A stretch of DNA of 64,000 nucleotides, taken from the NCBI GenBank assembly GCA_030248215.1, contig JASANG010001737.1, positions 496,001 to 560,000 of the forward strand. The letters run 5' to 3'. Both the position numbers and the translations under genes were made by a program. Source of the DNA: Enoplolaimus lenunculus. Lineage: Eukaryota. Shown here one piece after another: positions 4,984 through 63,209 of the stretch. A model generated the notes under the pieces. It ran no database searches. It saw nothing but the letters and a program-made list of their open reading frames with translations, and had not been told where the DNA came from. Numbering within the stretch: position 1 is the first letter of the stretch; each line of letters opens with the position of its first letter.

Positions 4984-5179
4984 GGCCCATGTAAAGAAAG
5001 ATCAGGGGCGCAATATTTTTCTGTTGGACTATAACAGGGTAAGCTTAAGCTTTAAACTTTTTTGCTTGGCTTAGGCTTAGGCCTAGGAATATGCTCATTC
5101 TTACCGTTAGGCTTAGGCATAGGCTTAGGCTTAGGAATATGCTTATAATTCCGTTCCGCCCCTGTTGATTACATTGGCC
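4984..5179 (+). mobile_element. Merlin-like MITE (family A) with TTAGGC core
   Basis: GGCCCATGTAAAG...CAGGGGCG and CGCCCCTGTTGATTACATTGGCC termini shared with other copies. Confidence 0.75.
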
Positions 5180-5629
5180 TTATAGACTTAAGCTTAAATA
5201 GGCTAAGGCTTAGGCTTAGATATAAGCTCATTATTACACTTTGTCTTGCGATTAGGCTTAGGCTAGAAATATGTTTATACTACTGTTACAGTCCTGTTTT
5301 ATACATTGGCGCGTACAATAAACCTTTTTTCACACGAATATTTTCAATTTCATCTGAAACGATACAATTTGACTATCACTGCGCATTGTGTATATTATTT
5401 CATTTTCAAACAATGAAAATGTCCCACTTTTGGTGGTCAGTATTTTTCAATTTGTCACAGAGAACACTTTTATAACAAAATTCACAAATCAGATGTACAC
5501 AGTGATTTTGCCCGTCAGGTGAATGCTAAGTGTGTCAGGCGTTTCCGTCCAGTAAACGTATGGTCTTCCAAAATTAGTGAATAATCGAAATTTATTTTGA
5601 TCAACCCACTCATTATATTATATTCAAGC

Positions 5630-5764
5630 TCGCGCTCGAGCGCCAAGCTCCACAGGCTGAACGGTCATCGTAAACGCCTCATTCTGGAGAGATCGAGGAT
5701 CGAATCTTACGTTGAAATTACACCTCTTATAAAATTGAAAATATTCATGTGAGAAAGGGTTAAC
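5630..5764 (+). mobile_element. Degenerate 5' part of tRNA-derived SINE-like element
   Basis: Similar to the reverse complement of 11128-11270 (CTCGAGCG.CAAGCTCC...GAAAATATTCATGTGAGAAAGGGTTAAC). Confidence 0.5.
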
Positions 5765-7788: not shown

Positions 7789-8037
7789 CACTGTAAATTC
7801 TAATGAGTTGATTTTAACTCAGAATGAGTTTTATCACTCAGTCTGCGTTAGGACTATAAGAATTCATAATTCTGAGTTGATACAACTCATTCTGATTAAT
7901 CAAATTTCCCGGAATGAATTCAACTCAGGGGGTGAGAATCAACTCAACTTAGAGTGGGTTAAACATTACTATTATTAACTCAGAAATAACTAACTTTACA
8001 TCTGAGTTGATTAATTAACTCGTTGGAATTTGCAGTG
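7789..8037. mobile_element. CACTG-ended MITE (family C, CMC/EnSpm-like)
   Basis: TIR CACTGTAAATTC...GGAATTTGCAGTG with 2-bp TG duplication; internal AACTCA/TGAGTT motifs; related copies near 8376-8616, 17852-18101, 18462-18716, 19124-19376, 26299-26831, 37654-37909, 45068-45313. Confidence 0.75.
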
Positions 8038-8150
8038 TGCGCTGAAACGATGTTAATAAACGAATTGATTTTTAGTCTTAATAGCTTAAATTTAGTTTTA
8101 GACTGCAATGATGCAATTGTTATGTTATATATTCGTGCAGTAAATATGCA

Positions 8151-8243
8151 ATGTTTCAAAATTCATTAATAGCAAATCATTGGACCTTACCGGTTTTAGT
8201 GTTACCGATAATTGTTTTAATCAGCGGTTTCAATAACGTGCAG
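8151..8243 (+). CDS. Receptor gene exon 1: signal peptide [31 protein letters not shown]
   Basis: ATG, hydrophobic core, CAG|GTAAAT phase-0 donor; tgcAG at 8139-8140 could be a cis- or trans-splice acceptor. Confidence 0.6.
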
Positions 8244-11200
8244 GTAAATATTTTGTGTTATAAATATGAAAAACGTCAGTTGAAAGCTTTTTAGCTTCCA
8301 AGCGTTACTCTTGTCTGCAAAAAAGTCATTGAAAGACTATTAAAAATAATAGTGATAAATACTTAAACTCACATACACTGTTAATTCCAATGAGTTGGTT
8401 AATCAAATAATCTCAACGCAGAGAACGAATTGGTCGTTTCTGGTTTAATTTTCGAGTTAATAACAGGAAACAATTAAACGCACTCTAGAGCTGATATAAT
8501 TCCGGATGAGTTGCTTTTAATTAACTCAGAATGAATTCCTGAGTTCAGGAAAACCTAACTCAGAAACTGTGATTCAACTCATTCTGAATTGAAATCAATT
8601 CACTGAAATGTACGGTATATTATTTTTAACTTAAAACAAATTAATCCAAATCGCTTACAGCCAATGCATTTTTCATCAAGTATATTTGCTTTGGTTTTAC
8701 CAAAACCGTAATGGTAACTTTCTGTTCAAGTGTATGGAACTGGGTACATTCTGTGTTTAGAAGGAATGCATCTCGCACGCGTTGCGTTCTTGGCCTATCC
8801 CCCTTCAATTCTAAACGGGGTCAGTTCGCACATTCATCTAAATATTTTATGGGTTAACTAATTGCACTGTTCAACTTAGGGTTGCGCTACTTTATACTTG
8901 TTGTCCGGCGCGTCCGTCACCGTCCGTCACCATCAGTCACCCGTACGGCACCGTACGGCACCGTCCGTCACCCGTAAGGCGCCGTCCGTTACAGTCCGCC
9001 ACCATACGTTATCGTACATGAGTTATTAGCGTACGATACCGCACGGTGACGAACGGCGCCGCTCGGGTGACGGACGGTGTCGGACTGTACCGTGCAGATG
9101 ACGGACGTGCCGCACGGCAAAAAAAGTATAGCACTACCCTTATACGCTTATTATTATGCTGCAAAAAACAACTGCCCTTTTCCTAATTACCACTGAGGGG
9201 TCGGGTCGAAACGAAACGCCTGCTTGGACATTTTGTACCATGCACTTTATGGTAATAGTTGCATACTCTTGTTGAAACAGTCATTATCGACTCTCATTGA
9301 TATTATAATTATCATTTTTCCGGATGATGTTGAAACCAGTTGTACAACGTCTAACCCATTGTTTGCTGAAAACGAACCTGTTCACGTTGTGGCGAAAAGA
9401 TGTAAGTTTAGTTTATTTTCAATTCGTGTTCCGGGACCGCATGTGCGAAGACACAAAAGAATGGCAATTAAACCCAGAGACCAATAAGGATGGCGCTATA
9501 CTTGTCCCGCGGCGCCCTCTGTGACCATACGGTATCGTACGTCAGTGGTTCTCGTAAAATACCACACACAGTGACGTACGGTGACGGACGGCGTCTGACG
9601 TCATCAAAAGTATAGCGTCATACCCTTAGACTTGCAAAAATATTTAATTATGATGAGTTCATTTTTAGTGACTCGTTGAAGTGGGATATTGCAATAAGTT
9701 GTTTAAGTAGTACTTTCTGCCTACAGAAGTCCATTTTACTGCCATCTTAAGGCCCAACGCATCCCCTAAACGCTACTCGGCCTAAAAGTTGTCTTTGAAC
9801 AGAAGTTAAAAATATTACTCCTGTTAAAGACTAAATTGCTTATAAGTTTTGAAGATTTACAATATTTATAAGCTTGAAAATCAAGACGTTTCAAATCAAA
9901 TGTTACACAATTATTTGATTTCAAAACTCACGTAAAGATCACGGGTGGAACGTTTTTCTTCTGCATTGTAATAGTTCCAGCTGAAGCTTTAGACAAATTT
10001 TTTTGCTTAGGCTTTAGGTTTAGGTATAAGCTCATTGTTACGCTTTGGCTTAACCTTAGGCTTGGAAATATGCTTATACTATTGTTACGGCCCTGTTTTA
10101 TACATTGCCCAATGTCAGATCCATGGGGGGCCACCCCGGCCGTGCCCACACCCCCCAACAGCATCTCGACAAAAATTATATAGAGTGTCAATTGCTGTTT
10201 CTACGCTGTTTATTTCTCTGTTTTATACGCAATAGTACAAGCAGCTGCCTTTAAATTTGTGCCTGTTTGAAACCAAATCCGAACTTATGTTGCCACTCTG
10301 CTGTTGTTTAGATCTAAATTGCGTTGATGCGTCAGCTTTATTTGTGATTCATCTCAATTGAACGAACGTAAATCAATTATATGACAATAGTTCGTGGTTA
10401 GTGTGCGGGTCAAAAATATGTTTATTACCTGTGAAATTTTACCCCCCCCCCATTTTGAGATCCTCGATCCGCCACTGACAATGCCCACTGTAATTTTAAT
10501 ATGATAGCATTGGCAACATGTCCATGTCTCTTTTTCTCTGTTACAGTCCTGTTCTATACATTGACCTGTTTCAGCAACTCCGTGTGGATTGTTAACCGCT
10601 CCAGCAAACGGTTTCATCAAAGGATTTAATTGGTGTTCACCGACTAGCACTTCGCTATGCTTATACTATAGTGCGGATAGCTCCGGTCTGAGTTACAACT
10701 GGTCCAGGACGTTGTATATTGGATGCGACTATCCGTACATCACCGAACCGTTCCCACCGACGCTGCGATGCAATCAAACAACGGGTCAATTTGTTCCGCC
10801 AGTTCCGTCTCCGTATCCTATTTGTAGCAGTAAGTTTGAACATTTTGCGACAAAAGCATAAGTCATCACACGTTTTAGCTCCCCCCCCCCGCAACCAGGA
10901 ATCACTTTAAGTAGAATGGGTGAGAAATTTTCCTCCCACTGGGTACAACTAATAAGTTCCACAGATAGAATTGTATTAGTGCAATGGCCAGGGTGGGGCA
11001 GCGAACCTGTTCGCTGTGGGTGATGGCAGTCCGCCGTCTCGTTTGGTATGGTTGCGGGCCTGAATAACCATTTGCGTTTTAGGTGGTTAACCATTGGGTT
11101 GAGCGATTCAGTAGCATTTGCCTGTGGTTAACCCTTTCTCACATGAATATTTTCTATTTCCCCTGAGACTTACATTTATGCTAGGATTCGAACTCCAGTG

Positions 11201-14200
11201 ACTGGAGTGGGAGGCGTATACCATCACCACTGAGCTATAGGAGCTTGACGCTCGAGCCCGAGCGGGCTCTCACGTCTTGTGGTGATTTAGTACTATGTAT
11301 ACGTGTTGCAATTGTTAAACACGGTGCGATATATACTATTTACCGTATATATATATACACTGCGCTGAGTTGCCTATAGGCAACTCAATGTGAGAAGGAG
11401 TTAATATCGTAGCGTTTTCCAAAACGGGAGACCAAAAATTTTGAGACGGCTTATTTACTTGACCTGGTCAGCGGCCAGTGTATAGAACAGGGCCATAATA
11501 ATAGTATACTGTAGTGACCCGAATAAGAGGGAATAATAAGAGAGGGTCCCCATTTTGAGTCCCATCAATAGGCGTCCGTAACCCTAATAAAAGACAGTAA
11601 GCGAATATAGTCCCTAAACCCTAATGAGAGTCATATCAATTATCTCTGATTGTAGCGCATACATAACTACAGAACCAAATAAATTTAGTTCAAATCTTTA
11701 ATGCATACTTAACTATTCAAAGTACATTCCTAAGTACAACATTGAATTATCGGTCAAGCTTTAGATACAAGACAAATAAACGTTCAATTCAACGGATAGT
11801 TGCAATACCGGATATTTTTCAGTATTAACGAAGGGCGGCGGACGGCGAGCATAAAATAAATAACATTCCGTAACCGAATAACAAGCGGGGTCCCCTCTGG
11901 AGAGGCCAAACAAATATCAGTCCCCACCCCTCTTATTCGGGTCACTACAGTAAACATATTCCTATGTCTAAACCTAAGCGTAACAATACGCGTATTACAT
12001 AAGCCTACTACTTAGCTGTAACACTATGGCAGTCCTGTAGAAAAACGTTCCGCTCCTGATCTTTACATTGGCCTGTTTAACTATTAATGTCTTCAATTTC
12101 TGAGTTAGCTTGCCTGAAATACATTTATTTTAGTGCGTACATGTCCAACTATAACAGCACCAACAAACGGCTATTTTTTGGTTCAACGCAAATGTATTGG
12201 AGCATATACGTCGTCGTATTGGTGTTTCGATCATCAAACTGATAGCTTAGGTGATCATTTTTCCAGCAGCCGAGGGGGAAGTTGTGGCAACCCCTCACAT
12301 TTTTGAAGTCAGCAAATTTTACAATGACATATTTTAGGAAAACATAGTAAACGACTGGATTCTCGCTCGGTTTGCTCGTGTGGTTTCGTCAACCGTTATA
12401 TATCATCGGACCGTAACCGGGCCCGTAGCCAAGGTGGGGCCAGGGGGGACTTAGAGCATCTGCAAAAATTTTGCCCCCCTTGACAATTTCCAAAGTTGCC
12501 ACTCGATTCGATTAAACTTATTAGTTTCCGTTAACGGTGGTGCTCGTAGCTACTGCCCCTTATTACCAGATAATCGGCCCCGGTAGCTGTAGGGCGCCAG
12601 GAAATATGATCCGGCATGCGATTTAAGAAAAATTGCATTTTCAGCGAAATTCAAGTTAGGAAATGCATTATTCACGCTTATTCGGCTTCTAGCTTGCGAT
12701 GTTTCTTCCAACTTTATATACTGGGTTCTTGCCTAAGTGCAACTCATTTGGCATAGCTGTAGCGACCCTGAAGAACACAGAAGTTTAGCACTAAATCTTA
12801 ATAACCAGTTTAGATTTTGATCGATATTGGCTGGCCAAGGCCTGGGTAGGACTTCCATGGATCGGCCGGGGATTGGTTGATTATTTATATTTCAGGGTGG
12901 GATCATGAATACAACTACGACTACGGTATTGATATTTGGTGTCATTATCCATACCAGCCAACGGGTATCACTCATACTGATTGTGACGCATCGAACTCGT
13001 ATCAGCCGCCCATTGATACGGTGTGTCAATGTAAGGAGCACCAAAATGGTTCGAAGCAGACTCGTAGCCAGCTCACATTGTTACGTCGGCTAATCATTTT
13101 TCAGGAAGGTCATACAAGGATTTTCGGTGACTTACAAACAAGGTTGAAAATTTATGTGGGTAAAATTGTTCCAGCGGGCCTAAGCCCTCCTGGCCGCCCT
13201 CTGGCTACGGGTCCGGTTCGAATTTCTCCAGCTGTTATATCCTGCAGGGTGCCTTAGGCAAAGATATGGTGGACGTCAATATTGAAATAACCTCAATGTA
13301 TCTTTAATGTTCTTAGCTTTTGTATACTCAAAAATAAATGGCTGTCACAACCAAATGGAATTTCTTAAAATTTTAAGCCAAAAAATATTAGAAACAAAAT
13401 GATTTTATTATAAGAATTATCTGTGTTCAGTCTGATATCCGTAGTATTTTTTCACAATTCGCAAAATATTTTATAATTTCAAATTCATCCGAATTGCTAA
13501 ACTGGTCCGTAGCCAGCTCACCTTGCTAAGGGAGACTACAGTATTTTCAAGACTGACGTACAAGGATTTTCGTTGACTTTACAAAGTTAAAAGTTTTCAG
13601 GAGACGCTAAAATTTTTCCAGGAGGGGGTAAGCTGAGCCTCTCTGGTCCCCCCTTGAAAAAAGGACTCGATGCTACACTGAATTTTTGGACATTTTCAAA
13701 ATTTTTCTCCACACTGGTCACAGCATACCCTGTTCTGAATCATCCCGCAACGTTTACTCACAAATGCGAGAGATGCACGGACCATCATTACTGTGGATTT
13801 TACAAAGTATTAAAAAGTTCAAACTTAATATTTAAGTTCGGTAAAAAATTAAACCCATTTGAATTATTGATAAATTGAATTTTTAGTATACTGCAGCGAC
13901 CCGAATAAGAGGGGGACTGATTTTTATTTCGCCTCTCCAGACGGTACCCCTGTTAGTTGGTTGTTATTTATTTTTAACCCTCCCTCCATTGCCCTTCGTT
14001 ACTAATTTAAATATCTGGTATTGGAACTATCCGTTGAATTAAACGTTTATTAGTCTTGTATCAAAAACTTGAGCGATAATGCACGGTTATACTTAATAGG
14101 GATGTTCTTTCGAACCTTAAGTATGCTGTAAAGTTTCGAACTCAACTTTATATGATCCTCGAGTCATTTATGCATTACAATTAGGGATATATAATTGACG

Positions 14201-17039
14201 TTTATGAACTCCAATTACAGGTTAGGTACTCTATTCGCTTACGGACACGTATTAGAGATACGGACTCGTATTGATTGAGACTCATAATTGGAACTCGATT
14301 TATTACCTCCTGTTATTCGGGTCACTACAGTACATTTTGAAATGTTTTCTCTACAGTGACAACGTGTCCTGTGTTGAATGCACCGGTAAACGGATACATA
14401 CAAACGCGACGCAGTTGTACCGATCAAGATCATTGGGATACGAAATGGTGTTACAAGAACGATCTAAGCAGTATATCGTTCGATGCTAAAACGGAATACA
14501 CGTACGGGATTGAGTTATGGTGTCACTATCCGTACCGGACTTCCGGGATTACGAAAACATATTGTGACAAAACGACAAACACTTATCAACCACCGGTTGA
14601 TACGACTTGTTTAGGTAAAAAATACCGGAATATGAAACAGGTTCATCATGGACGCTGTCAGGATTTTGGGCCCATGTAAAAAAATTTTGGACCGAAATGT
14701 TTTTCTGTGTGTTTAGTTTAGATTTTAGACTATTTTTTTGCTTTGGCTTAGGCTTGGATTAGCAATACGCTTATACTACTGTTGCCGCGCTGTTCTATAC
14801 ATTGGCTGGATTTTGAAATAAGAAATGACGTTTTATAGAAAAGTCGAGTGGGGTGATCTTGTGTTTCAAACTCACACCGAGTCTAAAACCTTCAGCACAA
14901 TAATCTTAATGGGGGTTTAACCTCTGAACCTCCCCCGAACTCGGCTACTCCTTTGAAGCTCCTAATCAGCCCAAGTTGTCAAAGCCGAAAAGTTTCAGGT
15001 GGGGCACACCGGAGTTTCGCAGTCTATGTAAACAAGCGAGGTTTAATCGTTTCTTGAAGAGACCGAGTCAATAGGCTTTAAAATCCAGTTAGCCACTTCC
15101 TACAGTGTATAATAAAAAAGTTTCAGCCTCGCACCATGTATTTCTACAAGATCCACAACTTTGGGATGTTTCATTGTTTAGCAACCACAACCACGAGAGT
15201 TCAGCAACTGAAATTGAAGTTAAAATAAGCCAAACAACTTGGGGTTTTAAAATCAATATAGACACTTCCGACAGTATTGTAGGCCAATCTGCTATTCAGG
15301 CCAATTACTAATTGGCATAGACAAATCAGCTACTTTGCGTAATAGCAGTTTCGCCTAGGCTCAACTGATATTGACCAATCAGATATGATTATTTGGACAG
15401 ACGAAATACTGTTAACCAATCAACGTTGGTTTTATAACACAGTTGTTTTGCTACATGTTATAATCGCTAATAGCAGATTCACCTGCGACATATATACTGT
15501 GCAAACAACTCTCTAAACCATTTAATATTTTCACAAGACCCTGCGACATATATACTGTGCACACAACTGTGTAACCATTAAATATTTTCACAAGACCTAC
15601 AGCCCTGTAGTGTTTACAGCAACCAACTGTGAGAGAGCAGTCGCTCCACAATACGGTTATTTGCAAGTCACTGAATCATGCAACGAAAATACACCGGATG
15701 TTTGGTGTACAACGTCGCATCAATCAAGTGATACGTTTAGCAACCGCGTGCGCTACGATAACGGAATTTCGATTAGGTGCAATTCCGGATACTATCTCCT
15801 GTACACAACGTTCACAACTTGTGAACCGGGCGCCAATGCTTTAACACCGTCAATTATTACAGAATGCCATAGCAAGTTTGTTTTTTGTTTTGTGGTTTGG
15901 CGGGGTGGTGGTCTAGACTCCCAATCAACAAAGAGTCTAGACTTTCATTCAACTTGGGGTTTAGACTCTAATTCGACTGCGGGTGTAGACTCCCAATCAA
16001 CTTCGGGTTTTAGACTCTCATTTAACTAGGGGTTTAAACTCCTGGTCAACTGGATGTTTAGACTCCCATTCAACTGCGGGTTTAGACTCCCATTCAACTG
16101 CGGGTCTAGGCTCCTGTTCAACTGGGGGTCTATGCTCCTGTTCAACTGGGGGTTTATGCTCCCATTCAATTGTGTTTCTAGACTCTCATTCTACTGCGGG
16201 TCTAGAGTCCATTCAACTGGGGGTTTAGACTCCCATTCAAAAACCAAGAACCGTTTGGCAAACTGTCGCAAATGAATTTGAGGTACTAAAACTTTGTCCA
16301 TCTTGTCGCTAACGAGGTTTTCATTGTAGTTTTTTTACAAGAACAGTAAAGTACACAAAATTTCTCAATATTTTTCATTGGAACCAGATACCTACGACAC
16401 CAATTCGAACATTCAAAATTTAAAATTTAGGTAATTAACGCGATGTTGCTTAGACCGGAGCCCATATTCTCTACTGCATATAGCACCTATCATCAGTTAG
16501 CGATAGGTTTTCAAACTGTCGAACACCTTCAATTGGACATCTCAAGATTGGTACATAAGTAGGGCAAATCAAACGCGAACAATGTGCTCACTTTCGACGC
16601 TCGCCACGCGCTGGTTTCAAAGTTACAAGACCTATGATCTACTGGTGATAGGTTCTACACACAATTGGGAATACGGGCGGCTCTATTCTTAGACCTGTTC
16701 TAATTGAATATCCTGAATACGAATCTGTCTGCAATATGCTTCAACTAAACACGTCATGGGGAGCCATGGCAGCTTTAAGTATGAATACTTGTTCTTTTCT
16801 TATTATAATACAATTTTTTTCTGTTAGCAAGGTACTTGCGGCGGCGTATGAGCTGGTGTTGAGATCTTTTCCATTTTTCTTTCTTTCTTTCTTTCTCTCT
16901 TCTTTCTTTCTTTCTTTCTTTCTTTCTTTGTTTCTTTCTTTTTATCTTCCTTTCCTTCTTTCTTCCTTCGTTCCTTTTTTCTTTTTTTCTTTTTTGTTTC
17001 TTTTTATCTTACTTTCTTCCTTCGTTCCTTTCTTTCTTT

Positions 17040-17072
<33 letters not shown>

Positions 17073-38000: not shown

Positions 38001-41000
38001 CCTATGTTCTCCCAAAAAGAGTCAATACTATGATTTGGTATTAAAGTTTAGCGCTAAAATGGTGTTTGGCTTCTGGCTCGCTTCGTTTGTGGAGTTTACA
38101 CTCCCGATTGTAATAACCACTCTAACTATTTTTAGATCCGAAGCAGACCCGTAGCCAGCTCACCTTGCTAGGGTGCTGAACATTTTTCAGGATGGGCATT
38201 CAAGGATTTCGATGACTTTACAAATGTGAAAATTTTCTTTTGGGGTTAAAATTCTTCCACGAAAAAAGCTTAGTCTCGCCTGAGCCACCACTGGCTACGG
38301 GCCCAATTCGAGGTTATAGTGTCGTTAGTAAAAAAGTAAATTTTCTTTGTTTAGCAATTTGCGAACCGCCTAAATCCGACGATACTGCAAGCTTTTACAT
38401 GATCACTGGAAACAACAGCAACGAAATCCTCGAAGGAGATTCCATTTCGTATTCGTGCAAACAAGGATATGGGCTTGACGGTGACCGGATAGCGATGTGT
38501 TTGGGGTCAACGCAGTTTAGCGCGACTCAGCCACCTTGTAAACGTAAGTATTTTTATTTTTTGAGGTACGATGATGCTGTTTCAAGGTATTTGTTCAGCA
38601 AGATTGTATACTAACATCATGACTGAATTTACAAAACAGGCTTCAGCCTAAATAATCGATATATTAAAGTTAGAATGTCCCACATACGTATTTTGGGCAG
38701 CGTTTCAGCGCAGGAGTAAACCAGTCTGACAGTACGGTATTTTAATTAAGTATTATCTACATATCTTTCTAATTTGTGCATATAGGAAGTACTTTACATT
38801 GCATGTCCTAACTTTTCCAAGTTCTGTTATCTACACATGTGTGCAACTGTGTTGACTGGTAAATAGTATCGGGGGACTTTGTCTTCTATCAAATCTTTAT
38901 TATTAAAGCTGAAACACACCACATACGTATTTTGGGCAGCTCTCCAACTTTTATTTGTATACTTTGAAACATAATACGATGAACAGTATATATGCAAAAT
39001 TATTTACGTAACTACGAATACGTAGCGATAAGCAGGTGCGAAACGTTTAAGATCAACACAGCAAACTGACGCTATCCTAAATATGAGAAGTAGGTGTAGG
39101 GTTGTGAATGTTGCAACCATGTTTACCAGTTAACGTTAGGGTAAGTGCAGGTTAGTAAACAAGAAACCATTTCAGCGATTCGTTAAGTTGACTTATTTTC
39201 TCGATTTTATCTAAAAGTTTCTTGCATACGAGCGTTACGCGTGGCAAACTTTAATCCCCTTGGCAGGGTTTATTCTACAGACTGAAAAAGTGCCTCTATT
39301 CCAAGCCTTTCCAGAAATTTAGAGGGGATATATCCTTGTTTTCCCCTTTGTATACGTCCCTGTGTAGCACCTATCACATCAACCTGTCAAACGGGTGCAA
39401 TTTGCTTCTAAATACTGTTGAAAACAGTCGTGGTTTTGCTTAGCTCAGCGAATTTTGACAGTCAGTTCGCAGACTAACGTTGTTTATTACTTCATTAATT
39501 TTTCAGGCATCTGTTACGATTATCCTGACGAAATAGAAAATGGAAAGCTAACGATACAACGCAAAAATGGTAATATCCTCGAAACGATGTCAATAACGTT
39601 AACGTGCAACACCGGATACGAAGCTAGCGGTACAACAGTGTCGACGTGTACCACCACTGGATTCTTTGATCATAAACTTGCGCCTTGCGTCAAAGGTGAT
39701 AAATTAGCATTGGCTGAGTTGCGTTAACATAACTCAAGTCGACCTTTGACTCAGCTCGATTTAGGACTTTTGAGTAAAGATAACTCAACTCGACCGTTGA
39801 CTCAGTTCGATTTAGGACTTTTGAGTAAACATAACTCAACTCGACCGTTGACTCAGTTCGATTTAGGACTTTTGAGTAAACATAACTCAAGTCGACCCTT
39901 GACTTAAGTCGATTTAGGACTTTTGAGTAAACATAACTCAAGTCGACCTTTGACTCAGCTCGATTTAGGACTTTTGAGTAAACATAACTCAACTCGACCG
40001 TTGACTCAGTTCGATTTAGGACTTTTGAGTAAACATAACTCAAGTCGACCCTTGACTTAAGTCGATTTAGGACTTTTGAGTAAACATAACTCAAGTCGAT
40101 CTGTGACTCAGTTCGATTTAGGACTTTTGAGTAAACATAACTCAAGTCGACCCTTGACTTAAGTCGATTTAGGACTTTTGAGTAAACATAACTCAAGTCG
40201 ACCCTTGACTTAAGTCGATTTAGGACTTTTGAGTAAACATAACTCACGTCACCAAAAACCTGGACGCCACTTAAAGTAACATGGGCCGACATCGCAAAAC
40301 ATTTAGCACGATTTCATTAAATTTCTAGGGGGTCCACATTCCGCACATTTGCTGTCAAACAGGCCTGTATAACAATAACACATTTCACTTGCAGATTGCT
40401 AACTTAATCAGAGTCTTATTTCTTTTTAGCTAAAACTCCTAGACTGGTAAGTTTCAGTTTTTAAATATTAGACAAATTATGCTTTGAAACTTTAAAAATC
40501 TAAATTTACAAACTACTCTGAAAATGTTAATATTAGTTCTAATCATCATCAATCTAATGTGTTATGCTGTTGTATTAAAGACTATTTAAATTGGAATCTC
40601 GAATGTTTCTTAACTTGTAAATTTTTTTGGACCTTGCCAGCCGAAACCCACGTATAAAGATCAGGGGCTCAACGTTTTTCTGGGGGACCTGTAATCGTGC
40701 AAGCTCAACCTTTAAACTGATATTTGTTGCTCAGGCGTTCGCTTAGGCGTGTGCTCATTCTTACGTTTAGGCATAGGCTTAGGCACAGGAATACGCTTTT
40801 AGGAATAAGCTCATTCTTATGCTTAGTCTTATGAATTAGACTTCGATTTAGGAATATGCTTATACTACTGTTACGACCCGGTTCTTCGCATTGACTCTAG
40901 CACAATAGATTTGTTTTCTAGAGTCCTCATTCCGAAGTTGTAACAGAAATAATGGGCGCTCTTCAACGTGTCTCATGTATTTTACTCGTGATTATACTCT

Positions 41001-44000
41001 CAATACTACAAGCATTCTTTCTTATAAATAGGTAAACTGTACGGTTATTTTAATAAAACGCTTAAACGGTATTCATAAATGCACGTTTTTTGTAACGAAA
41101 ACTCGCAACTGCAAGTTGCACGCGGAAAGTTCCGCAATCATAAATTGCAGCTGCAATTCATTGCTACAACATTTAATTACCAGTTAGCGATAGGTTTTCA
41201 AACTAACGAACACCTATAATGGCGAATATCAAAAAGGGCACATAAGTACAGGAATAAATCATGTATATAGATATATATATTATATATATATGTATATATA
41301 GTAAAAAAATGCTAAGTTTCGAACTTGGTCGTAGCATATTTGAAAATATGGGCCTAGGAAACGTCAAATAGGGACAGTCTTGCTCTCATTATATCTTTTA
41401 TAATATTGAATCAATTTAGTCTACGCCAGGCGCGTAGCCAGCCCACCTTGCTAGGGAGGGCTATAAAAAATTTTCATGGGGGCGTTCAAGGGTTTTCAAT
41501 GAGTTATAAGCAAAGCTGAAAATTCTCTAGGGGGAGCCAAAAGTTTTGCACGAGGGGCTGAGCCCCCTTGGCCCCCCTTCGCTAGGGGCCCGAGTCTACC
41601 CTATTCACGAAATAATGTCTACTAGTAAAACGCATATGCACACAGGTACAACACTTAGGATTGTGTGGGTACTTAAAGTGTTTAACAAACGACAAAAATA
41701 TGAAATCCGGTATAAAATCAACAATGGCGGAAGTGACTTAACAATTACCAAATGCCTTCGCTCGATTAGGGAATTTATACGTGCAAATTCTTTTGTAGAA
41801 CGATAAACGTAAAAATATAATATACTCGCTATATAAAAAACTTTGTTTACTCTTCTGCTGAAACGATGCTCAAAATACGTATGTGGGGCGCGTTCTATGG
41901 ATGGAGACGGCAATAATACTGAGAGAGAGGCATTGCGAAAAAATTTGTATCGAACAAAAATCATCAAAATACGCAATGTTAAATAATGTGTTTACGCCCA
42001 AATGACTCGCATATCATTACAGAATATGGCATCTGGAACGTTTACTTCAACTTTTTGTCGAACTTGGATTGTTGGTCGCTCATTTGTTAATTGTAATCAA
42101 TGCTGATCCGACTACATTTAAAGTGAGAAACATTTGTAGTGCATAGACAAAAACTTGTATATGTCGTCGCCAAAGTCGTAATTCAGCCCAGTTCCGAATT
42201 GGGTTAGTCCAAAGCGGAATTACGACTTCGGCTAGCCCAAGGCGGAATCATGTCTGATAAAGCTGTGCGTGTTTTGATTGGTTAATTGATAGTCGCAATC
42301 GTGCTTGATCCCACTTTGCTCAGTGAAACAAACTGATAGCCAACAGGTTGCGATTAGTTAGCCAATCAGAAAAGAGTATTCGCAACAGTCAATCGTATTT
42401 GAGTATGGCATTAAGGTAGTAACCAATCACAAGGCGTGCACTTGTCGCATAGAAAGAATTACGCCGTGGGCTAGCCAAAGTGGTAATTACGCCTTGGACT
42501 CTCCCAATTCGGAATCGGGCTAAATTACGACTTGGGCTACGACATGTACACCATGTCACAATTTTTACACTCTTATCAACCAGAAATTAAAATAATTTTG
42601 GTACCTATGCGAAATGGGTTAAACCTCTTTGCTGTTGAACTTAAAATTGGTACAAGAGTTGAGCAAATCACAAGCGAAAAATGTGCCAAAGTTTGAGCCT
42701 CAGCATTCGCTGGTTCGTAAGTGACAAGACCTATCACCAACTGATAATAGATGCTACACACATTTTAGAATACGGGCATAAGTACTAAAGTTGCGTCAGG
42801 TTTCTGGCTCGTTTCATTCGCAAAATTTGATTATTATTTTGACCCATGTTCACGTTTAGGGCTGTTCTGGTATCTGGTGGGCCTGTAAAAGATTATGCTT
42901 ACATTCTAGACTACTTTTTTTGCTTATTTTTAGGCATAGAAAAACGCATTTGCAACGCTTAGGCTTAGGCTTAGGCTTAGGAATACGCTTAATCTACTGT
43001 TAAGGCCCTAAAAGTAACATTGGCCATTATTTGTCATTTCTGCTCTCGGTTACGATAACAATTTGAGAGTTTCATTGGTTGTCGATGTCTAAACACCTGG
43101 TTCTGAGCACGGAAATAATTGAAAATAAAATTTAACTCGTCACGAATTTGATATTTTTTCAGAATAATACGGCATGTAACGCGACTGCGCTTGGGATACA
43201 AGCATTTACTTTGATTCACTTTGCTGGAATGTTAGCCGAATCCGTACAATCTGGCCTAAGAACAGTGAATATGTTTTCAGTTGGTCACATGATTTCTAAA
43301 TCAGCATATTTTTTGGTTGTTTTAGGTAAACACACAGTGTTGCAACAGGAACTTAAATTTTACCGTAACAGGAATTAAATATTGGCAGGAATTCCAGCCG
43401 GAACAGAATTCCGGCGGATCCTTAGAAAAACACCAACGTGTTTTATATGCATAGATAAATTGTTTAGCTGAATAGGTCTGTAGTCAGTTCCAAATGTTTT
43501 AAGAGAATAGTTTCAAATTGAACCTATGGTTCGCAGAGATACCATTACCATTTTGAACTGAAACTTCTCAGGTGCTAAATTAGCAGAAAGATAAAAACTT
43601 ATGATTGCTTGAATAGCCAAGTTACCATGTATGTATGTATGCATGTATGTATTGTTGGCGGACGGTTTAAAGCGTAGAAACGTTGTTTGGAAAAAACTGC
43701 TACATTTGAACGCAAGTTAATTTTAATATTTTTTACAAAACAACTGATTATTTATGCGCTTGGGAGCGTTTTGTGTCACTGATGAAAGCGGGGACACTTG
43801 ATTATTAATCTGAAGTGGAAATAGTAAATTCATATTTAGAAGATTTTTGCCTGTGATTAGGCTTTGTTCTCAGAGTCTAAAATAATCGTATAAGTTGGTT
43901 ATAAGCACTCTCTAAAAAACTAAAACTTAAATTATAGCTTAACTAAGCTTGAATATTAGTTTAGGTAATACTCAAATGGCTGGACGGACTAATTAAACTA

Positions 44001-47000
44001 GAATTTTAAGTTTTACTTAACTAACATATTTTTAAGTTAAACACCAGTTTATGTAAACTTATTTTTGGTTTAAGTAACAGATGCAGTTCAGAAATTATTT
44101 GTATTTGAGAGTTCACTAAGCTTAGCTTACACTAAAAATACGTAAGATTTTAAATTACTCTAAGCGTAAACCAACCTGTTAGTTAAGTTCATCTAGAAAC
44201 TTAGTTTAATACAGCTGGGTTAGCTTAAGTTTAAATCAAGTTAGTTTAAGCTTTCAGAGAGTAGAAAAAATGTAAATGACGTCGATTTTAGTGAAAATTA
44301 AACATTTTCAGCGGTATCTGGATCAATAGCAGGAATCACTGCAGCGAACAACTTTGACGACTACCGTGCGGATTTAAGGTAAACTTTTCTAGGTTGTACT
44401 TTTTTCCTTTCATGTTCTGTTTGTTGCAAATACTTTGATGCCAATGTTACATTAAGGGCCGTAACAGTAGTATAAAACATATTTCTAAGTCTAAACCCGA
44501 GCACAAATTTTAGTCTAAAGCTTAAGCTTACTCGATTGGAGTCTCGCGTAAAAACTGTTCTACCGTCAAAGTAAACGTGGACCATGAATGATTTAATCAG
44601 AACGATTTGGAATATTAAGTAGTTTTTAGTAAAACGATCATACACTGTTTCATCTGTATTATTAAAACTGGAACGCCCCGCATACGTATTTTGGGCAACT
44701 TTCCAGCATTGCTTTGTTTATATTTTCTCAGAACACAAATATAATTGTTCTGTGGACGGAAAATTTGCATGCATATTGTTGTGTGTTCACTAACTTTTGC
44801 ACATTGCGCAAAGCTGGCTGACTAATAAAGTTTATTTCAGCTGTTGGCTGAACTTAGAAAATGCAACATTTTACGCGACGCTAATTCCTGTATCGTTAAT
44901 GAGTTACTGGACTTTGATTTTTGCCGAAAGTGCGGGTATACATGCCGACACGCCGTTGCCATGTGCAAATTTTATTAAGAAAACGGCTGCATTGTAAGTC
45001 ACCTCTAGATTTATTCCTGAACCGCAAGCGCATAAGTCATATTTTCGACTGTGTGACAACTGTCGCCACACTTTAAATTTCAGTGAATTGATTTTAACTC
45101 AGAATGAGTTTAATCCGCTCAGGGCTCTGTGCACTGAATTAGGTCTTTCAGAACTCAGAATTCTGCATTGATTGAAGTCAGCCTGAGTTAATTAATCAAC
45201 TCACGCAGAATTAAATCAGCTCAGAGTGAATTAATGTTTACCGCTATTAACTCGAAAATAACCACAAATAAACTAATTCTCTCTCTGAGTTGATTACATC
45301 GGAATTTTACAGCACAGTTGATACCTATTTTTCTTCGTATTCGCAAATGTGTGTAGCACCGATCACCAATTGACTAAAGACTTGTAATTATTAACCGGTG
45401 GATTGCGATATCTGAAATTCGGTCATTTTTTCTGTTTTGATTTGTTCTGCTTGTGAGCAAATTTGAGGTTTTGCAACTGCATCGAGTTCGTCAGTTTGGA
45501 AAACTGTCGCTAATTGGCAGGGTTCCATCGGAATTCCGATTCCGGCTAAATTCCGCAAAATTTGATTTTCCGATTCCTATTCCGGCTGACTGCTGTTCCG
45601 ATGCCGGTATTCTGATTCTTCGGTCACGGGTTTTTAAGATGATTGAACTTAGATTTTGCTCGCTTCGTTTTGTTTCGTTCATTTTCAATTATTCTGATGG
45701 TTTTTTTCTCAGTAAATATTCCGAGTTGTTACGTGTACTTCGTCAGCTATATAAACATGTTTTACTGAAACTGTGAACAGCAACAAAAACGGGCATACTG
45801 CTTCAAAAGTTAAAAGTCATACACCTTTAACTTTTTAATAGAATTACTAAAACTTGATTTAGATTCCGATTCCGGTTCCGACAGAAAAATTTGATTCCGA
45901 TTCCAAATTCCGCTTCCGATATAATCTAGTTCCGGTTGGAACTCTGCTAATTGGTGATAACTTCCATACGCATTTGAGACTACGCTGTCTGAATTCAGAA
46001 GAAATCGAACGGTGGCATCCGCGAGTCTAAAAATTTGCACAAGAGCGACGCAAATGAAGTGCAATGAATAAGCACGTTTTCTAATCTTCACATACTCTGT
46101 TTCGAACGTTACAACACTTTGGACCAACTGGTAATAGGTGCTACACATATTTGAGAATATGGGCGCACTTTATCAGTGTTGTTACCAGCAACACAAACTG
46201 CATTCAGATTACGTTTCAGCGTCAGATTTATAATAAACACTTAAATTTAGGCACCTTTCAACAACATGAAAAATAGTTGTTTTTTGGTTGAAATTTAGAA
46301 CTGGTACAACAATGTGTGTGTTTCAGCCAATCATATTTAGCCATGACCCCTAAACACTTCTGGATTGGCTAAAATAGATTCTTGGTTTCGCCAGGTGAAC
46401 CGTATTTCGGTTCTCAACTCAGTGACATACTTTCAAATATATGAGGCTTCGGGTGAACTTAAAATTTTAAAAGTTTTAGCAAAATTTATAACAGTTTTGT
46501 TTGAAATCAACAGGCAATATTTGATCGTTAAATCACAATGGATGGGTTTCTGAAATCTTACTTAATTATTTACTTAAGTTATACTTAAGTCGCCGAATTA
46601 AGTAAATACTTAAATTTTCGAGCACAACCAAAGAAGCGCTAAATAACGGCCATTGTCATGACAAGAAAGCTATTAAGAACTTTGCTTTATACTAAGGAGG
46701 TAACATGAGTCTACAATTTCAATTATACCAAGGTTAGTATGCTGAGCGGTTAATTTGTAGTATATCAAATTTAGTCAGCGACTAAAGTATTCACTTAACT
46801 TAAGTACACTTTTAAAAACGACAAAATCGGTACGTAATTACTTGGCACGTACTTAAGTACTAAGTCGTACTTAAATAGGGTTTAGGAAACCCAGCCATTG
46901 TTTTTTATTCTTGTTTTTAGGTTATGTCAAAAATACTTAATGTTAAAAGTGCTGATCAGTTATGTTACGTGGATATTAGGCGCAATATCGATGTTTTATC

Positions 47001-47904
47001 GGCACGGCGCTTTGATTGCTGGCGCGTCTGTATTGCATGTTGTTATTGCAAGTTGCATTTTAGTAATGCACATTTCAACTGAACCAAAAGTAAGTGTTGC
47101 AACAAAAAATATTTCTGACGCCACTCGCGTCGAGGAAGCGGGCTGGAAACGAAATTTTTCGAGCATTCTACTAACATTTTTGGCCCCACTGTAGTAAGTT
47201 TTGCTTCAAATTTTTCATTCATGCTTTTGATATCGTGTGCCGAAGCTTGCAGCCCCAATTTCCTAAGGGGATTCGTCGCCGAGGTAAGGGCCTTCGACCT
47301 ATCAGCAGCATTTTTCTATTTGGAAGCTTGGTTGGATTTGACGCCAACAACGGTTTCAGTAACCGGTTGACCGGTACATGGGGCCTCGCGAGGCTTAGCA
47401 ACGAGCGTGTCTTTATTCTAATGCATCTTAATATACAGCTCTTGTCCACTTTTCCTCACATTTACGCGTAGGCTTAGGTTTGCGATGAGGCTTGCTACAC
47501 TATTCCTTAGCCTTTTGCCGAAAACCTAAAAGGTGAATTCAAACTCAAGCCGGAGCCTGGCCCATGTATAGAACAGGGCCGGAACAGTAGCATAAGCATA
47601 TTCCTAAGCCTAAACCTATCGATGAGCCTATTCCTAAGTCTAAGCCTAGGCGGAAGCCAAAGCAAAAAAATTAGTGCAAAGCTTAAACTGACTCTATTAT
47701 AGCCTCTCCAGAAAACGATCCGGCCCTGTTCTATACATGGACCCTGAGCCTTAATCATACAGCTTATTACAGGTGTTGCTATTTGTCATCAAATTACTTC
47801 ACCGAATATCGAAACGGTTATCGAGTGCAACTCTTCAAGCGACTTTATCGCATTACTACATCAACGGAATTATTCCTGATGATATTGGCGAGCAATTTCT
47901 ATAA
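8151..47904 (+). CDS. Sushi/CCP-array adhesion-class (family B2-like) 7TM receptor without GAIN domain; 32 exons, 1690 aa
   Basis: Exons: 8151-8243, 9281-9401, 10575-10829, 12134-12250, 12896-13030, 14357-14614, 15620-15871, 18907-19080, 19800-19985, 20799-20975, 22394-22573, 24537-24713, 26059-26235, 27506-27688, 28763-28939, 30186-30365, 31525-31701, 33553-33741, 35288-35461, 35934-36047, 36998-37114, 37462-37632, 38355-38543, 39507-39695, 40430-40446, 40922-41031, 42023-42122, 43163-43325, 44312-44378, 44841-44993, 46921-47089, 47773-47904. All junction phases are compatible; total 5073 nt with a single terminal stop. The first two exons and the 17-nt microexon are least certain. Confidence 0.85.
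8877..9141. mobile_element. TIR element (family H) with internal CCGTCCGTCA repeats
   Basis: AGGGTTGCGCTACTT...AAGTATAGCACTACCCT inverted ends; related copies near 9486-9627, 19439-19500, 21135-21272. Confidence 0.55.
9281..9401 (+). CDS. Receptor gene exon 2: pro-segment ending ...HVVAKR
   Basis: aacAG acceptor, T|GTAAGT donor, phase 0-1 bridges exon 1 to exon 3; paralog exon ends HKIIKR with the same phase. Confidence 0.65.
10575..10829 (+). CDS. Exon 3: atypical 6-Cys Sushi-like module 1
   Basis: tttc[21 protein letters not shown]...C...C...GCDYPY...C...PYPICS. Confidence 0.85.
10900..11270 (-). mobile_element. tRNA-derived SINE-like element
   Basis: Minus strand GCTCCTATAGCTCAGTGG (A box) ... 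GGAGTTCGAATCCTAGC (B box), followed by a body shared with 5630-5764; 3' boundary approximate. Confidence 0.55.
11473..12073 (-). mobile_element. Family A MITE carrying a nested family B insertion
   Basis: GGCCAGTGTATAGAACAGGG...CCTGATCTTTACATTGGCC interrupted at 11509-11950. Confidence 0.75.
11509..11950. mobile_element. TA-targeting (Tc1/mariner-type) MITE, family B
   Basis: TIR CTGTAGTGACCCGAATAAGAG...CTCTTATTCGGGTCACTACAG flanked by TA; other copies 13891-14330, 29020-29420, 33941-34367, partial at 7061. Confidence 0.85.
12134..12250 (+). CDS. Exon 4: N-terminal half of 6-Cys module 2
   Basis: [45 protein letters not shown] donor. Confidence 0.85.
12896..13030 (+). CDS. Exon 5: C-terminal half of 6-Cys module 2
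   Basis: [44 protein letters not shown]; tttcAG/GTAAGG. Confidence 0.85.
13891..14330. mobile_element. Family B TA-targeting MITE
   Basis: TA|CTGCAGCGACCCGAATAA...TTATTCGGGTCACTACAG|TA. Confidence 0.8.
14357..14614 (+). CDS. Exon 6: 6-Cys module 3
   Basis: [20 protein letters not shown]...WCY...WCHYPY...C...PPVDTTCL; same 258-nt length as paralog exon. Confidence 0.9.
15620..15871 (+). CDS. Exon 7: 6-Cys module 4 (GC donor)
   Basis: [16 protein letters not shown]...ITECH; A|GCAAGT donor; paralog exon has the same 252-nt length. Confidence 0.85.
15908..16240. repeat. 24-bp minisatellite (TTTAGACTCCCATTCAACTGCGGG)n
   Basis: About 13 degenerate tandem units. Confidence 0.85.
16866..17080. 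repeat. (TTTC)n polypyrimidine tract
   Basis: Low-complexity run; source of the F/L/S ORF 16736..17086. Confidence 0.9.
18907..19080 (+). CDS. Exon 8: Sushi/CCP module
   Basis: ICYYVD...[32 protein letters not shown]. Confidence 0.85.
19124..19376. mobile_element. Family C CACTG-ended MITE
   Basis: AT|CACTGTGAATTCC...GGAATTTACAGTG|AT, 2-bp TSD. Confidence 0.8.
19800..19985 (+). CDS. Exon 9: Sushi/CCP module
   Basis: [11 protein letters not shown]...[30 protein letters not shown]. Confidence 0.9.
20429..20500 (+). pseudogene. tRNA-like relic (A box intact, B box degenerate); tRNA pseudogene or SINE head
   Basis: TAGCTCAGTGGTTAGA; CGGA-CCGTTGA-TCCG anticodon-like stem with GTT; T-loop GGATGTGAGCCCC lacks GTTC. 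Confidence 0.35.
20799..20975 (+). CDS. Exon 10: Sushi/CCP module
   Basis: [11 protein letters not shown]...[30 protein letters not shown]. Confidence 0.9.
22394..22573 (+). CDS. Exon 11: Sushi/CCP module (absent from ORF track)
   Basis: [58 protein letters not shown]. Confidence 0.85.
22878..23101. mobile_element. TIR MITE family F
   Basis: CCCATATTCTCAAATGTGTATAGCACCTATCA...TGATAGGTGCTATACGTATTTGAGAATACGGG; related copies near 16460-16678, 27944-28157, 42590-42777, 45945-46164, 60880-61100. Confidence 0.7.
23606..23784 (+). mobile_element. Family A Merlin-like MITE
   Basis: GGCC termini; flanks ATATTTTT/CTATTTTT (7/8 match); TTAGGC core. Confidence 0.8.
24537..24713 (+). CDS. Exon 12: Sushi/CCP module
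   Basis: [11 protein letters not shown]...[30 protein letters not shown]. Confidence 0.9.
26059..26235 (+). CDS. Exon 13: Sushi/CCP module
   Basis: [11 protein letters not shown]...[30 protein letters not shown]. Confidence 0.9.
27506..27688 (+). CDS. Exon 14: Sushi/CCP module
   Basis: [11 protein letters not shown]...[30 protein letters not shown]. Confidence 0.9.
28451..28611 (+). mobile_element. Family A Merlin-like MITE
   Basis: GGCCCATGTAAAGATCAGGGGCGGAAC...GTTCCGCAGCTGTTCTTTACATAAGCC. Confidence 0.75.
28763..28939 (+). CDS. Exon 15: Sushi/CCP module (absent from ORF track)
   Basis: [57 protein letters not shown]. Confidence 0.9.
29020..29420. mobile_element. Family B TA-targeting MITE
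   Basis: TA|CTGTAGTGACCCGAATAAG...CTTATTCGGGTCAATACAG|TA. Confidence 0.8.
29893..30099. mobile_element. CACTG/CACTA-ended MITE family D with GAGTCAAATTTGACTC motifs
   Basis: TA-flanked; other copies 34934-35080 and 56367-56575, both TA|CACTAC...GCAGTG|TA. Confidence 0.7.
30186..30365 (+). CDS. Exon 16: Sushi/CCP module
   Basis: [11 protein letters not shown]...[31 protein letters not shown]. Confidence 0.9.
31211..31372 (+). mobile_element. Family A Merlin-like MITE
   Basis: GGCCCATGTATAGAACAGGGCCGGA...TCCGGCCCTGTTCTATACATGGCCC; flanks CCTAAGCC/CTTAAGCC. Confidence 0.8.
31525..31701 (+). CDS. Exon 17: Sushi/CCP module
   Basis: [11 protein letters not shown]...[30 protein letters not shown]. 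Confidence 0.9.
32941..33445 (-). mobile_element. Family A MITE interrupted by an oppositely oriented (TTAGGC)n array
   Basis: GCCCATGTATAGAAC...GTTCTACACATGGACC ends; insert at 33088-33390. Confidence 0.75.
33088..33390 (+). repeat. Interstitial telomeric-type array (TTAGGC)n, ~50 units with variants
   Basis: Read directly; TTAGGC is the nematode telomere repeat; flanked by TGACT on both sides. Confidence 0.9.
33553..33741 (+). CDS. Exon 18: Sushi/CCP module
   Basis: [11 protein letters not shown]...[34 protein letters not shown]. Confidence 0.9.
33941..34367. mobile_element. Family B MITE
   Basis: CTGTATTGACCCGAATAAGAG...CTCTTATTCGGGTCACTA. Confidence 0.75.
35288..35461 (+). CDS. Exon 19: Sushi/CCP module
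   Basis: [10 protein letters not shown]...[33 protein letters not shown] acceptor. Confidence 0.85.
35934..36047 (+). CDS. Exon 20: N-terminal half of a split Sushi module
   Basis: [44 protein letters not shown]. Confidence 0.85.
36223..36489 (+). mobile_element. Non-autonomous Helitron-like element
   Basis: A|TCTATATATTAAAGCT...hairpin GTTGCACATTTGCGCAAC...CTAG|T; shares CACATACGTATTTTGGGCA with copies at ~38659, ~38893, 41622-41907(-), ~44653, 51890-52066(-), 53872-54004. Confidence 0.75.
36998..37114 (+). CDS. Exon 21: C-terminal half of split Sushi module with extra Cys pair
   Basis: [38 protein letters not shown]; ttttcAG/GTAATT. Confidence 0.8.
37462..37632 (+). CDS. Exon 22: Sushi/CCP module
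   Basis: [55 protein letters not shown]. Confidence 0.85.
38355..38543 (+). CDS. Exon 23: Sushi/CCP module
   Basis: ICEPPKS...[30 protein letters not shown]. Confidence 0.9.
39507..39695 (+). CDS. Exon 24: last Sushi/CCP module
   Basis: [12 protein letters not shown]...[39 protein letters not shown]. Confidence 0.88.
39723..40247. repeat. 51-bp minisatellite, ~10 units with two or three variants
   Basis: TAAACATAACTCAAGTCGACCCTTGACTTAAGTCGATTTAGGACTTTTGAG tandem; source of ORF 39690..40292. Confidence 0.92.
40430..40446 (+). CDS. Exon 25: 17-nt linker microexon (A)KTPRL
   Basis: tctttttAG and GTAAGT; converts phase 1 to phase 0 as required. Confidence 0.65.
40922..41031 (+). CDS. Exon 26: TM1
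   Basis: [36 protein letters not shown]; ttttctAG/GTAAAC, phase 0-2. Confidence 0.8.
41427..41592. mobile_element. TIR element family G (possibly hAT-like)
   Basis: CAGGCGCGTAGCCAGCCCACCTTGCTAGGG...GCTAGGGGCCCG; related copies near 13060-13214, 13505-13653, 28222-28381, 38146-38303, 59168-59330. Confidence 0.6.
42023..42122 (+). CDS. Exon 27: ICL1-TM2
   Basis: (R)[33 protein letters not shown]; tacAG/GTGAGA, phase 2-0. Confidence 0.8.
43163..43325 (+). CDS. Exon 28: TM3-ICL2-start of TM4
   Basis: [54 protein letters not shown], matching the latrophilin-like C..A...F.L..F..M..E.VQ...V.(V/M)F pattern. Confidence 0.88.
43906..44262. mobile_element. AT-rich TIR element family E
   Basis: ACTCTCTAAAAAACTAAAACT...AGTTTAAGCTTTCAGAGAGT; colinear copies at ~57868-58218 and ~61837-62192. 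Confidence 0.7.
44312..44378 (+). CDS. Exon 29: end of TM4 and ECL2
   Basis: (A)[21 protein letters not shown]; ttttcAG/GTAAAC, phase 1-2. Confidence 0.85.
44841..44993 (+). CDS. Exon 30: ECL2 CWL motif, TM5, ICL3
   Basis: (S)[50 protein letters not shown]; tttcAG/GTAAGT, phase 2-2. Confidence 0.88.
46921..47089 (+). CDS. Exon 31: TM6-TM7
   Basis: [56 protein letters not shown] (TW..G of TM6; H....K of TM7 end); tttttAG/GTAAGT. Confidence 0.85.
47559..47743 (-). mobile_element. Family A Merlin-like MITE
   Basis: Flanks CGGAGCCT/CTGAGCCT (7/8 match). Confidence 0.8.
47773..47904 (+). CDS. Exon 32: helix 8 and short cytoplasmic tail
   Basis: [43 protein letters not shown]; tacAG phase 0 gives the family-typical KV junction. 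Confidence 0.75.
   Translation: MLLFVIKLLHRISKRLSSATLQATLSHYYINGIIPDDIGEQFL

Positions 47905-53804: not shown

Positions 53805-63209
<9,405 letters not shown>

Follow-up and report, generated by a model that had tools for sequence, protein, structure and literature searches.

A predicted Enoplolaimus lenunculus receptor gene joining twenty Sushi/CCP-type modules to a degenerate adhesion-type 7TM domain with no intervening GAIN domain

The window, which here denotes the whole 64,000-nt stretch of DNA that was analysed, contains a predicted receptor gene in which 20 Sushi/CCP-type modules run into a degenerate seven-transmembrane (7TM) domain of adhesion type, with no GAIN or GPS sequence between the last Sushi exon and TM1 (Table 1). 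It is probable that these parts form a single gene with this architecture, the Sushi-to-7TM join being predicted from the DNA. Splice-site scoring and exon chaining gave a model identical to that of the initial annotation, and a script that rebuilt the chain in window coordinates returned exactly the 32 in-frame exons and 1,690 aa claimed there (5,073 nt, a single terminal stop). The introns are GT-AG in 30 of 31 cases and GC-AG in one, and 11 of the 31 acceptors end in TTTCAG. The GC donor (15872-15873) follows module 4, and a tandem paralog downstream has GT at the equivalent place (58778).

Table 1. Features of the predicted receptor gene and its tandem paralog, in window coordinates
Feature	Position	Strand	Basis or remark
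Exon 1, start codon and likely signal peptide	8151..8243	+	KD peak 2.1 at aa 6-24
Exon 2, phase 0 to 1	9281..9401	+	ends His-x3-Lys-Arg; 5' end uncertain
Modules 1-4, five exons, 83-85-aa six-Cys CCP variants with inserted hairpin (as read here)	10575..15871	+	alignment, profile, fold of one
Module 1-4 exons	10575-10829, 12134-12250, 12896-13030, 14357-14614, 15620-15871	+	spliced model
Modules 5-20, 17 exons, Sushi/CCP repeats	18907..39695	+	Pfam PF00084, 15/16 above cut-off
Module 17, split exons, two extra Cys	35934-36047 + 36998-37114	+	model
51-bp minisatellite, 10.4 copies, intron after last Sushi exon	39719..40250	.	repeat analysis
17-nt adaptor exon, phase 1 to 0, basic Lys-Thr-Pro-Arg-Leu	40430..40446	+	17.8 bits
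TTAGGC-containing dispersed repeat (MITE-like), intron before TM1	40631..40900	.	many copies in window
TM1 exon, 110 nt, phase 0 to 2	40922..41031	+	model; hydrophobicity
TM2 exon, 100 nt	42023..42122	+	model, candidate ranking, hydrophobicity
TM3 to start of TM4, 163 nt	43163..43325	+	ESM Atlas 7tm_2
End of TM4 and ECL2, 67 nt	44312..44378	+	same size in mouse ADGRL2, ADGRD1
ECL2 Cys-Trp, TM5, ICL3, 153 nt	44841..44993	+	model, candidate ranking
TM6-TM7, 169 nt	46921..47089	+	same size in mouse ADGRL2, ADGRE5
Likely last exon, helix 8 and 43-aa tail (uncertain)	47773..47904	+	model, acceptor score
Tandem paralog: exon 2 and seven modules; leaves window before any 7TM	54446..63209	+	exon chaining, alignment

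The signal peptide placed on exon 1 by the initial annotation is likely, this being the sole hydrophobic ATG-to-donor exon located in 4600-10540. The N terminus and C-terminal tail of the model are uncertain because exon 2 has a weak acceptor (2.8 bits) and that of the last exon, at 5.6 bits, does not surpass several other candidates. A pyrimidine tract ending in CCG at 9310-9325 (+) occupies the place at which an acceptor of phase 0 would make exon 2 nearly as long as its counterpart in the paralog; either the acceptor there has been changed or miscalled, or the weak AG at 9280 is used. The dibasic end of exon 2, which recurs in the paralog exon 54446-54515, is possibly a pro-peptide convertase site.

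The segment that joins the two halves of the predicted protein is short and largely repetitive. The two linker introns measure 734 and 475 nt, close to the sizes first given, and hold the minisatellite and the MITE-like repeat described for them. The minisatellite has 92% identity between copies and occupies one locus in the window with unique flanks; its units contain internal palindromes and fall into four variants arranged in a higher-order pattern. Joining the last Sushi exon (phase 1 at its end) to the TM1 exon (phase 0 at its start) calls for a change of phase, and the 17-nt adaptor exon between them sits at the position where adhesion GPCRs (aGPCRs) carry GAIN/GPS exons. With splice matrices trained on the remaining sites of the model, the adaptor is the top candidate of any phase in the 1,226-nt linker, its two sites scoring 10.4 and 7.4 bits against medians of 9.8 and 7.9. 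Among open pseudo-exons no longer than 300 nt, none in the 33,472 nt of the other 29 introns scores as high; in approximately 12.5 kb of intergenic DNA there is one that does (4982-5038, 19.4), upstream of the gene, and it is formed by one end of the MITE-like element. Hidden coding exons in the linker were rejected; open stretches in the three plus-strand frames reach at most 59 codons.

The earlier claim that no GAIN domain can be hidden before TM1 thus held up, and in the DNA as assembled GAIN/GPS sequence is absent between the last Sushi exon and TM1. The three most specific of five GPS-type patterns had no match in the six frames of the window, and the other two had four, all outside the model exons; a GPS pattern of the C-x-C-x-H type is absent from all six frames. 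The tethered-agonist consensus TxFxxLM was not found in the 1,690-aa model. Only 24 residues separate the last Sushi cysteine from the TM1 core, and the TM1 helix follows the last module at a distance of about 12 residues. The stub that precedes TM1 in cleaved aGPCRs is given as 20 to 25 residues (PMC13197933, section 9), a span that in this model falls within module 20.

The ectodomain is built of modules on phase-1 exons, all 20 of which have four or six cysteines. The Pfam scan covered 29 of the 32 exons, leaving out exons 1 and 2 and the 17-nt exon. The 20 Sushi modules of the initial annotation were recovered in part: 15 of 20 passed the Sushi (PF00084) cut-off, which is 15 of the 16 in modules 5-20, and module 17, split over two exons, came close with its first half (19.9 bits against a cut-off of 20.7), whereas modules 1-4 had no Pfam match. 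Tryptophan is present in 5 of the 16 modules from 5 to 20. Module 17 (35934-37114) also contains a 950-nt intron and a Cys-Pro-Pro-x3-Cys insert, making it a second kind of six-Cys CCP. The last module is Sushi (E 2.5e-6) with no HRM match; across the 29 exons the single HRM trace, in module 12, was below cut-off (E 0.046). Between aa 46 and 1385 there is no hydrophobic anchor (maximum KD 1.37). The ectodomain has 25 N-glycan sequons, 23 of them in modules 6-19 and none in modules 2-5.

Modules 1-4 share their six cysteines with four modules of the paralog. The alignment and profile of this type were made from seven modules, with the split module 2 left out, and the profile matches complement CCP proteins weakly. 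Module 3, the one of the four that was folded, gave a predicted structure with a pLDDT of 85.9, whose best match to CCP modules was middling (Z 6.3, rmsd 2.1 A, 60 residues aligned; about 57 to 60 of 85 residues over the CCP matches), and the top 19 rows of its structural match list were all CCP-containing proteins. Structure prediction, which had been proposed as a check, was thus CCP-like for module 3, although Foldseek with this model returned nothing at E<=0.001. On this evidence modules 1-4 are read here as CCPs with an inserted hairpin.

The C-terminal part of the model contains seven hydrophobic segments with KD values of 1.45 to 2.88, all above the ectodomain maximum; five of the seven exceed 1.5, with TM3 at 1.47 and TM5 at 1.45. 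The TM1 exon was predicted as one continuous helix by a single-sequence method, which is weak evidence. The five internal exons after TM1 are five of the eight best open candidates in 41040-47760, and their chain is in frame. In the ESM Atlas the TM3 exon matched 7tm_2 clusters (score 0.91, 19/30 matches, 179/256 features, recognition 3515), against a background in which shuffled proteins reach 0.9 in 4 to 10 of 100 cases; the TM6-7 exon had no family match there (0.75, recognition 1532). Pfam, expected at the outset to return both Sushi and 7tm_2, gave the former as described and the latter in none of the seven 7TM and tail exons, each scanned singly. A PDB sequence search with three 7TM exons likewise matched no GPCR, yielding chance matches or none.

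Exon sizes provide a second line of comparison. Those of the 7TM domain (110, 100, 163, 67, 153 and 169 nt) have the same remainders modulo 3 as mouse ADGRB3 and ADGRD1 and agree with them to within 12 nt, provided that a 99-nt exon of ADGRB3 is omitted and that pairs of exons are merged, one pair at TM5 in each of the two mouse genes and another at TM6-7 in ADGRD1. The mouse sizes are 104, 103, 151, 70, 67+86, [99] and 172 nt in ADGRB3 and 104, 112, 154, 67, 67+92 and 127+42 nt in ADGRD1; ADGRL2 has exons of 67 and 169 nt and ADGRE5 of 70 and 169 nt, ADGRC1 and ADGRG6 do not have the pattern, and four of the six mouse genes compared thus show it (PMC6667449). These values come from the BED supplement of that study (30 rows, six genes), whose listed sizes are one short as judged from repeat exons of 71, 164 and 143/146 nt; the mouse exons were assigned to helices by size and expectation, and the merging was decided after inspection. 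With these limits, the exon structure is suggestive as independent support for adhesion-type ancestry of the 7TM domain. Together, the Atlas match of TM3 and the exon pattern favour a family B domain, probably of adhesion type by descent.

The residues that the initial annotation named in assigning the domain to family B2 are present, among them TM3 Cys1468, Glu1489, the ECL2 Cys1541-Trp, Pro1556, Trp1608 and His1641. That assignment probably stands as to ancestry, with the Atlas match and exon sizes behind it, but the domain is degenerate, having lost the three aGPCR signature motifs. These signatures, LHxxxLxxFxW, GxGxP and FxxxxxxQG, are vertebrate-derived (PMC8584163); none of the three occurs in the model, where TM3 keeps only the leucine and phenylalanine, in register. 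The TM3 Trp, TM4 Pro and TM7 Gly are 96-99.5% conserved in human family B (PMC8584163), and the corresponding positions here, with the register set by our own alignment, are Gly, Ser and Ala. In the same way (numbering by our own alignment) position 6.50 is Tyr and 7.50 is Ala, positions at which glycine kinks are described as common to tethered-agonist activation, with Trp6.53 as the toggle (PMC13197933). The residues that are kept are Trp6.53, Glu3.50 (21 after the TM3 Cys), Ser1.50, the TM3-ECL2 cysteine pair and the ECL2 Cys-Trp. Since the signatures are vertebrate-derived, divergence from them would weigh more as evidence in a fish than it does here, in a worm. Canonical G-protein activation is doubtful, although G-protein coupling may be intact given Trp6.53, Glu3.50, Ser1.50 and the cysteine pair.

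The tandem paralog has the same module order, and six of its seven modules best match the same-numbered module of the first gene at 35-66% identity. Conservation between the two genes is highest in modules 3 and 4 (56/85 and 51/82 residues). Changes are heaviest at third codon positions in all four pairs compared; a pseudogene was rejected on this bias, which concerns the modules only, and on the open frames. Module 2 of the paralog is one exon, where the first gene has an extra intron (12251-12895), and the first exon of the paralog was not found in the window. On the other side of the gene, an olfactomedin-domain gene has its terminal exon at 3479-4477 (+) (Pfam OLF, E 2.6e-54); the best match of this exon, one of two, is a Trichinella Ig-collagen-olfactomedin protein (41%); used as a query for latrophilins, this neighbour returned two proteins and no GPCR. 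The window, with a GC content of 34-43% in 2-kb bins, contains 159 TTAGGC hexamers on both strands, TTAGGC being the nematode telomere repeat. By its sequence features the DNA is likely that of a nematode, perhaps one of clade I. Arrays of it lie inside the MITE-like dispersed element (33091-33389, 50525-51253 and many shorter copies).

The reading put forward here, held at about even confidence, is that the gene encodes a receptor for adhesion or recognition that is not cleaved and whose 20 CCP modules stand on a degenerate adhesion-type 7TM domain acting as anchor and scaffold. Such a receptor would have arisen from an adhesion GPCR through the loss or replacement of its GAIN/GPS exons and the joining of a phase-1 Sushi exon array, by exon shuffling, through the 17-nt phase adaptor to the phase-0 intron before the TM1 exon. 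Modules 6-19 would form a glycosylated stalk. A CCP module is 3.5 to 4 nm long, and the whole array, if extended, would reach approximately 70 to 80 nm. The four distal six-Cys modules may be the binding site for a protein ligand carried by another cell or by the matrix; binding would cluster or pull the receptor, and force on the ectodomain would pass straight to TM1 because only about 12 residues separate the last module from its helix. With neither autoproteolysis nor a tethered agonist, the receptor would act through clustering driven by its ligand and through G-protein signalling that is weak or non-canonical, the 7TM domain probably being more an anchor and scaffold than a tethered-agonist switch. 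Granted the architecture, this mechanism of stalk, distal binder and scaffold 7TM is somewhat favoured.

The best surviving alternative, though an unlikely one, takes the same gene to encode a working GPCR in which a ligand or tension in the rod moves TM1 and turns on a G protein with no tethered agonist. The seven 7TM and tail exons are open, with strong splice sites except for the last acceptor; Trp6.53, Glu3.50 and the cysteine pair are retained; and aGPCR signalling, according to a review, does not always need cleavage. This is countered by the absence of all three signatures, including residues nearly invariant in human family B, by the replacement of Gly6.50 and Gly7.50, and by the short predicted tail. 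Less probable again is that an outside protease cuts the same protein at the basic adaptor (Lys-Thr-Pro-Arg), a shedding site replacing GAIN autoproteolysis. The adaptor is the sole non-module linker and is exposed between the last module and TM1, and exon 2 ends dibasic in both paralogs, but cleavage there would leave a stub of some six residues, most of them polar, in which there is no TxFxxLM-like motif.

About as likely as shedding, and if anything slightly less so, is that the model spans two genes or two transcripts: a Sushi protein that is secreted and terminates at a stop in 39725-39727, and a receptor consisting of the 7TM domain only, with Met1404 as its start, for example in a trans-spliced operon. 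Read-through past the last Sushi exon does run into that stop, 10 codons on, and an in-frame ATG lies in the TM1 exon; mouse aGPCR genes are reported to have soluble and 7TM-only variants commonly, and SL2 operon processing to be widespread in nematodes. Yet a phase-correct adaptor exon exists, the linker has no AATAAA, Met1404 lies just seven residues ahead of Ser1.50, and the size of the TM1 exon fits internal exons of ADGRB3 and ADGRD1. An assembly artefact, with an ordinary Sushi-GAIN-7TM adhesion GPCR having lost its GAIN/GPS exons in a collapse of the minisatellite, is very improbable: a 92%-identical array does lie where those exons would be, and the adaptor and TM1 exon would fit equally well behind a GPS exon, but the window has no N, the array occurs once with unique flanks, several kilobases would need to vanish, and a 7TM domain stripped of signature residues fits genuine loss of the tethered agonist. 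Even taken jointly, two genes and assembly collapse are unlikely.

The predicted uncleaved receptor has its closest counterparts in the adhesion GPCRs (B2), with which it shares a 7tm_2-like TM3, the 7TM exon phases, exons of 67 and 169 nt, the TM3-ECL2 cysteine pair, Trp6.53 and, through the predicted join, a very long modular ectodomain (20 CCP-type modules). Adhesion GPCRs typically have GAIN, GPS, a tethered agonist and the three 7TM signatures, whereas the predicted receptor has none of these. Glu-Arg at the opening of TM2, Glu-x-x-Gln-Ser in TM3, and Leu-Glu and Tyr-Ala after the ECL2 Cys-Trp are features that we take to be most like ADGRB. The receptor probably descends from an adhesion GPCR and works partly like one, but it is not filed as a member because it failed the GAIN, tethered-agonist and signature tests. 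Caenorhabditis elegans is reported to have LAT-1, LAT-2 and FMI-1 as its only adhesion GPCRs.

Other systems resemble parts of the predicted protein. CR1, CR2 and factor H-type proteins, which are single-pass, GPI-anchored or secreted and not 7TM, have long CCP arrays and supply the best sequence and fold matches of the modules, but they do not have the inserted hairpin seen in modules 1-4. GABA-B1a is a class C receptor with two CCPs before its Venus flytrap domain; as a GPCR with CCP modules it appears among the structural matches of module 3 (PDB 1ss2). Secretin-type receptors (B1) have no GAIN, and their 7TM exons include one of 61 nt and a 127+42 split, against 67 and 169 nt here. ADGRA1 has a short N terminus, whereas some 1,315 aa of modules stand in place of GAIN in the predicted receptor; the exon sizes of ADGRA2 also differ from those of its 7TM domain. 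Secretin-type receptors are family B receptors whose hormone-binding domain itself has a Sushi-like fold (PMC3776922), a likeness that also favours the working-GPCR alternative, but there is one such domain against 20 CCPs here. Methuselah and Methuselah-like receptors (B3) are 7tm_2 receptors that have repeatedly gained ectodomains, such as Somatomedin B, and are given as absent from the nematode genomes examined in that study (PMC4768249). Methuselah_N (PF06652), the ectodomain of arthropod members only, had no match in the 29 exons scanned, and many Methuselah-like receptors do not have it (PMC4768249).

The initial annotation's GAIN-less adhesion-like architecture is supported at the DNA level by the open model, the Sushi array, the absence of GAIN/GPS and the probable adhesion-type ancestry, but GAIN loss alone has precedents in family B, Methuselah-like receptors among them. 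GAIN is described as the only extracellular element in nearly all adhesion GPCRs, with eutherian ADGRA1 as the exception (PMC13197933), and ADGRA1 (GPR123) is an adhesion-family 7TM that lost it (PMC13197933, PMC11697300). Of 40 sponge adhesion GPCRs, 12 had no GPS, possibly through incomplete models (PMC4302439), and some holozoan aGPCRs have no GAIN or GPS (PMC12716839). A Sushi array on a family B 7TM domain was not found in print in the open-access text available, including PMC2246102, PMC3776922, PMC9085898, PMC6900090, PMC6208332 and PMC11682238; the available text of PMC1764030 gave no usable exon sizes.

Homolog searches used short queries. Against a set of 5.8 billion proteins the TM3 exon gave three candidates, none of which scored, and against 1.84 billion representatives it gave two matches, both to unrelated repeat proteins. 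The profile of the seven six-Cys modules retained 3 of 5,397 candidates, generic Sushi proteins with no 7tm_2. A metagenome match to the TM3 exon (one locus in 334 stretches) was rejected, being 22 residues in a stop-ridden frame on a contig of 63% GC. That no homolog with the Sushi-7TM architecture was seen in the protein collections searched is, with such queries, weak evidence.

Tentatively, and with confidence just short of even, the gene may represent a lineage-specific, tandemly expanded nematode receptor family in which the GAIN domain of a BAI-like aGPCR was swapped for a 20-module Sushi rod with a new six-Cys CCP tip, after which the 7TM domain shed its tethered-agonist machinery. An ectodomain of 1,300 residues with no GAIN contradicts the suggestion, made in the sponge survey, that GPS may matter most for receptors with long N termini (PMC4302439). 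Surveys of aGPCRs that use 7TM plus GAIN (PMC6900090) or Pfam 7tm_2 would overlook such genes. If the reading is true, the gene would be a natural experiment, an adhesion GPCR working with neither GAIN nor Stachel, and would allow one to ask whether an adhesion-type 7TM domain can signal from ligand or force with no tethered agonist and which 7TM residues are kept solely for the tethered agonist.
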